Source: Saccostrea echinata (lineage: Eukaryota). From it: DNA of 64,000 nucleotides. The translations under genes were made by a program, and so were the position numbers. Below the pieces are notes generated by a model that was given only the letters and a program-made list of their open reading frames with translations, was not told where the DNA came from and made no database searches. Each line of letters begins with the position of its first letter. The first letter of the stretch is position 1. Below are positions 49,835 to 50,788 of the stretch, in pieces. The stretch lies in NCBI RefSeq assembly GCF_033153115.1, contig NW_026889772.1, positions 11,904,001 to 11,968,000 on the forward strand. Reading direction: 5' to 3'.

Positions 49835-50788
49835 ATGGAAAAAATAAGACGGCCGAGGAGTCATGATTTTCGCGATCATGCTGTCACTTACATTGTAGGC
49901 ACCGATCAGATTTATGGCATAGATGGTTTTTATTCTATGTACCCCCAGTCAAGTCCAGAAATGATGAAAGATAAAGAAATTCTTGTGAGAAACAACGATA
50001 TCCAAAAAGATGAGGAAAATATGACGTTAAAAGTAGAAGCCTTCAGAGACGAAATCATAAAAAATGTTGATAAAATCAATCAGCTGAAATTTGATATTCT
50101 GTCGAAAGAAAACGGATCATACACTTCCAACAATGGAAGACTGAGGGTAAAAAGTCTTATACAAAACAGTGCACGTCTTGAAGATCTTGAATCTGAAATG
50201 GCCCTCCTAAAGAGGAATGTTGAGAGTGCCCAGGGATTACTTTATGATGTTCACCAAGCCACCGATGAGAAAGTGGAGCAGTGTCTCGGATTACACCGTT
50301 CTCGTTGTGTTTGTACTGAACCTGATACAATATTTATACGAGATATCTGTGACAAAGCTGCCGATATCGAAATAAAGAGACATTGTTATTCTTCAAATGT
50401 TCACATCGAAAGATGCACTGATATGAAGAATCATGTTAAATGGTTAAGAGGAAATAATTTGTTGTCCATTTCCGGTTGCTTTGCGTCTCCAAAAATATAT
50501 ATATCAGGACTGTTTGTCAATCTCGTTGTTTCAATCAAAGGATTAGCTGGCCAGCCTGAAATCCATATCAAGGGTGTCTGTATTTCTCCACAGATCCTGG
50601 TTAACGGCACCAAACTTAAACCAACGGTATTTGTTGATGGCGTTGTCAGTGATCCTTATTTACAAGTTGGGGGACTTGGATCAAGATTGAAGTTAAATGT
50701 AACCGGTATCTGTTGTAGACAGAACGCCGTCGTAGGTGGTATAAAATGTCAAACAAAACTCAGAGTTTTCGGGATGTGTAACATATAA
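49835..50788 (+). CDS. Uncharacterised protein: coiled coil, Cys/His linker and C-terminal 10 x 11-aa beta-solenoid-like repeats
   Basis: 317-aa uninterrupted ORF in AT-rich DNA, with an acceptor (ttttcacag|) just before the ATG and exact 11-residue Gly periodicity in the last 109 aa. Confidence 0.8.
   Translation: MEKIRRPRSHDFRDHAVTYIVGTDQIYGIDGFYSMYPQSSPEMMKDKEILVRNNDIQKDEENMTLKVEAFRDEIIKNVDKINQLKFDILSKENGSYTSNNGRLRVKSLIQNSARLEDLESEMALLKRNVESAQGLLYDVHQATDEKVEQCLGLHRSRCVCTEPDTIFIRDICDKAADIEIKRHCYSSNVHIERCTDMKNHVKWLRGNNLLSISGCFASPKIYISGLFVNLVVSIKGLAGQPEIHIKGVCISPQILVNGTKLKPTVFVDGVVSDPYLQVGGLGSRLKLNVTGICCRQNAVVGGIKCQTKLRVFGMCNI

Follow-up and report, generated by a model that had tools for sequence, protein, structure and literature searches.

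What kind of protein is built from ten consecutive short units that each keep a glycine in the same place, and what might an oyster do with it? The question is raised by an open reading frame within the window studied here (i.e., the whole 64,000-nucleotide stretch of Saccostrea echinata DNA), which an initial annotation, made from the letters and their translations, took to encode a curli- or ice-binding-like beta-solenoid of no family that it recognized. The DNA is eukaryotic and rich in A and T (GC 0.28–0.37), and the window contains no second copy of the repeat gene.

Gene structure and repeat array

The frame encodes a protein whose repeats occupy residues 209–317 (Table 1), and full-length oyster relatives at 50–88% identity share its start methionine. 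Four of the six listed sequencing runs, which we guess to be RNA, were compared with window positions 44000–52000: one contig spanned the whole frame in each of three runs (two samples, two studies), two pieces covered most of it in the fourth, and depth was zero in all four at two non-coding bins (45068–45334 and 47204–47470). In runs X1, X2, and X3 the contigs cease to match at 49826, with 43, 78, and 16 extra letters, respectively, and pyrimidines make up 87% of the 30 nt preceding the AG at this point. As the contigs break here and the AG follows a pyrimidine tract, the transcript is apparently spliced, its first exon being non-coding and a single further exon carrying the coding sequence. 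A stretch at 49794–49827 that reads as hydrophobic was also considered as a spliced signal-peptide mini-exon; it was rejected as the polypyrimidine tract itself, since the contigs run unbroken from 49826 into the frame and the oyster relatives begin at the same residue. Judged by hydropathy rather than a dedicated predictor, none of the 18 proteins tested has a hydrophobic N-terminal segment (maximum 11-residue hydropathy 0.83), which agrees with the initial claim that a signal peptide is missing, and 19-residue maxima of 0.85–1.61 across the tested family proteins reveal no hydrophobic anchor helix.

Table 1. Features of the repeat-protein gene, in window coordinates.
Feature	Position	Strand	Observations
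Polypyrimidine tract and splice-acceptor AG (49826–49827)	49796–49827	+	Precedes the sole coding exon
Coding sequence	49835–50788	+	Whole, 317 aa, single exon; in-frame stop immediately 5' of the ATG
Basic N-terminus, residues 1–53	49835–49993	+	Predicted disordered; least conserved part (31–38% identity among oyster relatives)
Helix 1, residues 54–91	49994–50107	+	DSSP on model; pLDDT 69–83 at residues 61–90; first arm of predicted helical hairpin
Loop, residues 92–111	50108–50167	+	pLDDT <50; 75–85% identity in four oyster relatives
Helix 2, residues 112–140	50168–50254	+	Heptad repeat; DSSP on model
About four degenerate half-repeats, residues 152–196	50288–50422	+	Carry Cys160, Cys172, Cys184, and Cys194; predicted first beta-helix coils
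Short helix, residues 197–205	50423–50449	+	Inserted in the repeat array; has His200 and Trp203; from model
Ten half-repeats of 11 residues (five coils of 22 residues), predicted two-sided beta-helix	50459–50788	+	Ends four residues past the last Gly, then stop
AATAAA, candidate polyadenylation signal	50948–50953	+	Motif alone

Other features of the window include three paralogous open frames (20675–21253, 31823–32446, and 40166–40804, all on the minus strand), 46–56% identical to the first of them, with conserved Cys, Trp, and His and no Pfam match; by sequence comparison, these form a tandem family. An intact 753-aa frame at 53880–56141 (+) carries a reverse-transcriptase-like YIDD motif without a Pfam match at the cut-off and is presumably Penelope-like; decayed fragments of the same type lie at 18549–18944, 36639–37199, and 48317–48604 (−). 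Two exons lie on the plus strand, one of a GNAT acetyltransferase (8770–9423; PF13302, E 1e-5) and one without a Pfam match at the cut-off (13230–13646), which we take to resemble the N-terminus of FAM8A1-like proteins.

The ten repeats had been called exact. Their translation and strict length are as quoted, but they are exact in length only, and the last has 10 residues where the other nine have 11. Compared in pairs, the first nine average 22% identity in protein and 37% in DNA (maximum 48%), such that no recent DNA repeat is present, as had been claimed. Specifically, Gly stands at position 6 in all ten repeats, I or V at position 4 in all ten, and I, L, or V at position 2 in nine, again in line with the earlier description. 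BLOSUM autocorrelation peaks with z-scores of 8.7, 9.2, and 6.9 at lags of 11, 22, and 33; none of 5000 shuffles matched the lag-11 value at any lag, and none of 200000 produced an all-Gly column.

A longer unit emerges when relatives are included (column counts here and below are from 14 non-redundant rows of a 24-row alignment). Repeats resemble alternate repeats more than their neighbors: the even/odd split ranks first of 126 possible splits across the 14 rows and third to fifth of 126 inside each of four subgroups, and these rows hold no period-3 signal among repeats. These patterns argue, without any need for AlphaFold, that the true unit is a 22-residue pair and that each 22-residue coil would contain two strands. 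The consensus places Pro before each strand, followed by K/E, I/V/L, H/R/S, V/I/L, E/T/K, G, a hydrophobic residue, and C/W/F; the Pro is present ahead of most strands, in 75 of about 139 cells, positions 1, 3, and 5 are mostly K/E/H/R, and Cys occupies position 8 in 44 of the 70 even-repeat cells. The repeat domain is basic in oysters (net +6 to +11). It lacks a C-terminal cap, as 13 of 24 rows have four residues past the last Gly, while 10 of 24 carry an extension of 27–84 residues after the tenth repeat.

Upstream of the array, a Cys/His cluster had been noted. The cluster is present and conserved, but it is better read as degenerate repeats plus a short helix insertion, since a ten-repeat profile gives four upstream columns (152, 165, 177, and 188) family means of +2.6, −1.4, +15.0, and −4.1 against a null of −16.5 (sd 6.9), i.e., all above the null and one strongly so. 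By this profile, about four degenerate half-repeats extend the array upstream; in the model residues 152–196 form four strands, at pLDDT 35–69. The heptad coiled coil described upstream also stands, with L, I, V, M, or F at seven of eight a/d positions of residues 112–140 vs. 10% elsewhere. Residues 1–58 are modeled at pLDDT <50. The hairpin-type part of the structure finds matches at Z 8–9.4 that are generic, and a likeness to ESCRT-III hairpins (CHMP4B, Z 9.4) was rejected on that ground. The loop between the helices is conserved like the repeats among oysters, differs in other clades, and contains a KEN tripeptide; it possibly holds a linear motif.

Relatives and conservation

An uncharacterized protein of Saccostrea cucullata (LOC134235121) is 88% identical to the window's protein, and uncharacterized proteins of Ostrea edulis, Magallana gigas, and Crassostrea virginica, or their cluster-mates, are 50–63% identical (nine matches, the query itself included, among 636 candidates). 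A profile of nine oyster sequences, run against 1.84 billion representatives, returned 14 matches, of which six belong to the family, three are fragments, and five (P0063–P0067) are unrelated repeat proteins that matched weakly and were set aside. One family cluster includes proteins of Mytilus edulis and M. galloprovincialis, and a search from a member of a second clade added seven further clusters (nine matches among 688 candidates). Homologues, for which the initial annotation had suggested a search, thus exist in oysters, Mytilus, and further clades; the label “bivalve” is shown for oysters and Mytilus only. Among the proteins set aside, P0065, P0066, and P0067 have near-perfect 11-residue repeats of a similar pattern, and the family profile scores P0066 at E 2.4e-8 and P0067 at E 3.1e-9; judging from their sequences, these three likely converged on the same 11-mer.

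Across the 24-row alignment, in which identity falls to about 25%, Gly6 is kept in 240 of 240 cells, and the ten repeats contain no insertion column (gaps occur in 6 of the 24 rows). The periodicity is therefore old and conserved, and the array free of indels in the sense of insertions, as originally proposed. C160, C172, C194, and W203 are present in all 24 rows, H200 in 23, and C184 in 22; C249, C293, and C315 are kept in 21, 22, and 19, and Mytilus and P0060 have aromatic or aliphatic residues in place of the ladder cysteines. Among four oyster relatives the repeats are 70–80% identical vs. 31–38% for the N-terminus. An unrooted tree of the core separates the oysters, Mytilus plus P0060, a ten-row clade, and P0058/P0074 as four groups, with long branches and an unsure group order (support 82/75). 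Tandem paralogues are suggested within the ten-row clade, where P0093 and P0094 have longest contigs of equal length, as do P0107 and P0108, and C. virginica has three named loci of the family. Three near-identical proteins (P0055, P0068, and P0070) differ in C-terminal length and have Trp where others end, possibly through read-through of TGA by the gene caller.

A bacterial or viral origin had been raised as a possibility, and it found no support in the collections searched. Pattern scans of virus, metagenome, and prokaryote contigs, which are insensitive to distant relatives, gave no confirmed locus among 49, 127, and 36 matches to the oyster-alignment pattern or among 226, 119, and 10 matches to the second-clade pattern, and a phage collection gave no relative; the exhaustive profile search was made with the nine oyster sequences only. 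Pfam, NCBIfam, and PHROGs gave no match near the cut-off (Pfam for 14 members at E up to 1), sequence searches of the PDB returned only weak, non-significant rows, mostly coiled coils, and searches of the open-access literature by accession, locus, and keyword gave nothing on the family. The earlier failure to recognize a family is thereby borne out: the family is undescribed, and it pairs a repeat of its own with a fold class already known.

Some relatives differ at the N-terminus in a suggestive way. P(S/T)AP together with PPxY or LPxY occurs in a Pro-rich N-terminus in 10 of 17 proteins scanned (nine of the ten-row clade plus P0058), where composition-preserving shuffles put the chance of both motifs at 0.003–0.024 per protein; on the tree, however, the ten carriers count as two independent lineages only. 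Neither motif occurs in the other seven, of which five are from oysters and the rest are Mytilus and P0060, and a motif scan found neither P(S/T)AP nor PPxY in the N-terminus of the window's protein. The arrangement in the ten carriers—a Pro-rich flexible N-terminus with both motifs before a Cys-containing folded domain—resembles that of LITAF/SIMPLE, in which PPxY is the binding site for the WW domains of NEDD4, and TSG101 is the predicted partner of P(S/T)AP (PMC5142333). Unlike LITAF, these proteins have an unrelated fold, no hydrophobic anchor helix, and no LITAF Pfam match, and the motifs are absent from the window's protein.

Predicted fold and structural neighbors

The beta-solenoid proposal was checked by AlphaFold2. 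With nine sequences, the full protein was modeled with two helices (residues 54–91 and 112–140) and strands at pLDDT 70–81 over residues 211–300; with 24 sequences, residues 148–317 reached a mean pLDDT of 80.6 and a pTM of 0.78 (76.5–80.6 across five models), with pLDDT 83–97 over the repeats and 91–97 over most of them. Confidence thus rose with alignment depth, while the ESM Atlas model of the window's protein was poor (pLDDT 0.55, pTM 0.40) and an ESM Atlas search gave no usable match. Together with the 22-residue alternation, the models make a two-sided beta-helix very likely, as the initial annotation had supposed. Five regular and about two degenerate coils are predicted (about seven in total), with hydrophobic positions 2 and 4 filling the core and positions 1, 3, and 5 forming basic, His-rich outer ladders.

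Right-handed beta-helices superpose on the 24-sequence model with an rmsd of about 3, among them SufD (5awg_F; Z 12.3, rmsd 2.9, 163 aligned), C-CAP (1k8f_A; Z 11.4, rmsd 2.5, 120 aligned), a Dot/Icm beta-helix chain (7muc_AM; Z 12.4, 135 aligned), GIN adhesins, and pectate lyases. CsgA (8c50) and two acetyltransferases, presumably left-handed, fit poorly (rmsd 9–11, 9.4 for CsgA). Identity was 3–16% across the 50 structural matches listed, and about 20 unrelated beta-helices scored Z 10–12.4; as no structural match stands clear, the fold indicates a class and no function. The GIN-domain adhesins (3lyc, 3ljy, 3pet) and 7muc_AM have similar beta-helix geometry (Z 10.3–12.4) and are bacterial surface or secretion proteins at 6–11% identity. 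Foldseek against the PDB and viral models gave no match at E 0.001.

What the protein may do

We favor, at a probability of roughly 40%, an intracellular, non-enzymatic binding rod, i.e., an adaptor, with the uncapped last rung as a possible pairing surface. Such a rod would consist of a cytosolic two-sided beta-helix preceded by a helical hairpin. The first coils, with their Cys and His residues, could bind zinc or carry fatty-acyl groups, and, together with the hairpin, would obstruct the N-terminal end. At the other end, the uncapped last rung would join two chains tail to tail as a dimer, in the manner of SufD, and would not extend into an amyloid. SufD is described as a right-handed beta-helix with two strands per turn, which becomes twice as long in the homodimer (PMC6006206). 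For the window's protein, homodimer prediction of residues 159–317 scored 0.00 in both runs, in which the alignment was not used, and speaks neither for nor against pairing. In the motif-bearing relatives, the disordered N-terminus would serve to bring in TSG101 (ESCRT-I) and NEDD4-type ligases, which would point to membrane trafficking or to sorting that depends on ubiquitin; in oysters and mussels a basic N-terminus stands in place of the sorting motifs. We count against the adaptor that the window's protein has neither sorting motif, that the motif carriers represent two independent lineages only, that the ESM Atlas model is weak and the degenerate coils have low pLDDT, and that no fold match stands out.

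The geometry also invites the reading that these beta-helices stack end to end into intracellular fibers, as subunits of a filament or functional amyloid like curli or bactofilin. The curlin repeat is given as 23 ± 5 aa in two 11-residue halves, with Asn and Gln at strand ends (PMC10192328). The present family shares with CsgA/CsgB the 11 + 11 residue coil, the central hydrophobic-x-hydrophobic core, and Gly at the arcs, its uncapped last rung is strongly conserved, and the array has no insertions in 24 rows. However, Pro and Gly or hydrophobic residues stand where curlin has Asn and Gln, such that the N/Q ladder is missing and Pro comes before most strands; the curlin kernel N-x-hydrophobic-x-hydrophobic-x-Q matches once in 14 rows and never in the window's protein, and the curli likeness first proposed was on this count not sustained. 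In contrast to curlin, the oyster-family protein has no signal peptide and has extra domains at the N-terminal end, where the hairpin, the Cys-rich coils, and the helix insertion would hinder head-to-tail stacking, and the extensions past the tenth repeat likewise speak against fibers. Curlin forms a left-handed, untwisted solenoid; our model has the opposite hand and fits CsgA poorly, although model handedness is unreliable, as AlphaFold2 gave either hand for CsgA (PMC10192328). The structural matches listed did not include bactofilin. On the whole, we regard fibers as unlikely.

Less probable again is a diverged cytoskeletal regulator like C-CAP or TBCC, in which a helical domain and a beta-helix would bind actin or tubulin. 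Of the right-handed beta-helices inside animal cells, CAP and TBCC are the common ones, both with a helical N-terminal part. They share with the predicted structure an intracellular, eukaryotic layout of a C-terminal right-handed beta-helix behind a helical region (C-CAP/CARP 1k8f, 1k4z, 2b0r, and TBCC; Z 10.8–12.5). The full-length model had its three best matches in C-CAP chains (Z 12.2–12.5, rmsd 3.0, 127–132 aligned), and TBCC chains appeared among the non-significant Foldseek rows. Under the better model, however, C-CAP tied with unrelated folds, identity is 6–15%, none of 14 members matched the Pfam families of C-CAP and TBCC at E up to 1, neither profile matched a beta-helix PDB sequence, coils here are longer (22 residues vs. 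about 19 in C-CAP/TBCC), and no Arg near the repeat-8 Cys is conserved family-wide.

A role in handling metal or Fe-S clusters, or in binding polyanions, with the Cys/His ladders or the basic face as the working site, seems no more probable than the cytoskeletal one. The position-8 cysteines and the conservation of C249, C293, and C315 agree with it, as does the basic repeat domain, and the best full-length overlap is with SufB, SufD, and SmsB (5awg, 5awf, 1vh4, 4dn7, 9h78; 162–165 of 170 model residues aligned, rmsd 2.8–3.2, Z 10.9–12.3). These share with the window's protein, as modeled, the flattened two-strands-per-turn right-handed beta-helix, along with an N-terminal helical part and conserved Cys on the beta-helix. 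On the contrary, the exchange of ladder cysteines in Mytilus and P0060 for aromatic or aliphatic residues is expected of core packing and not of ligands. Furthermore, identity to SufB/SufD is 4–10%, the C-terminal helical SufC-binding domain is absent, about seven coils are predicted vs. nine, and this is an animal gene with a strict Pro/Gly 11-mer and no Pfam or NCBIfam profile match.

It is slightly more doubtful still that no single-chain solenoid exists, the model being an AlphaFold2 repeat artifact or the true structure a triple-stranded beta-helix topped by a trimeric coiled coil. AlphaFold2 is biased toward beta-solenoids for perfect repeats (PMC11795689), the ESM Atlas model is weak, and a coiled coil does precede the repeats. 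Yet the repeats are imperfect (22% identity), their in/out pattern is conserved across relatives of about 25% identity, the 22-residue alternation without period 3 emerges from sequence alone, and model confidence rose with alignment depth. More speculative than these, and improbable, is a curli analogue invented by animals: a beta-helix with Pro/Gly arcs would self-assemble in bivalve cells into filaments or membrane-bound coats and, in lineages with the P(S/T)AP and PPxY late-domain motifs, would recruit ESCRT so that the protein itself buds out in vesicles like viral Gag.

Finally, the proposed ice-binding likeness was not supported: ice-binding beta-solenoids present a flat Thr-rich (TxT) face, and, beyond a generic overlap with a beta-helical antifreeze protein (3p4g; Z 10.3, rmsd 3.1, 132 aligned), the window's protein has no TxT (four across all 14 rows), four Thr in 109 repeat residues and hence no Thr arrays, bulky and charged residues at positions 1, 3, and 5, and no secretion, in a warm-water genus, which makes an antifreeze role very improbable.

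Returning to the intracellular binding rod, to our knowledge animals have few beta-helices inside their cells (CAP, TBCC/RP2, and dynactin p25/p27). With its own 11/22-residue Pro-Gly repeat, which has stayed insertion-free between oysters and mussels, and without a microbial relative in the collections searched, this family is a candidate for an independent, animal-born solenoid. Its curli geometry without Asn/Gln ladders offers a natural way to ask why such coils polymerize, and the protein—short, with an intron-free coding part—is easy to express, while the sorting motifs in some members provide the first testable functional lead.
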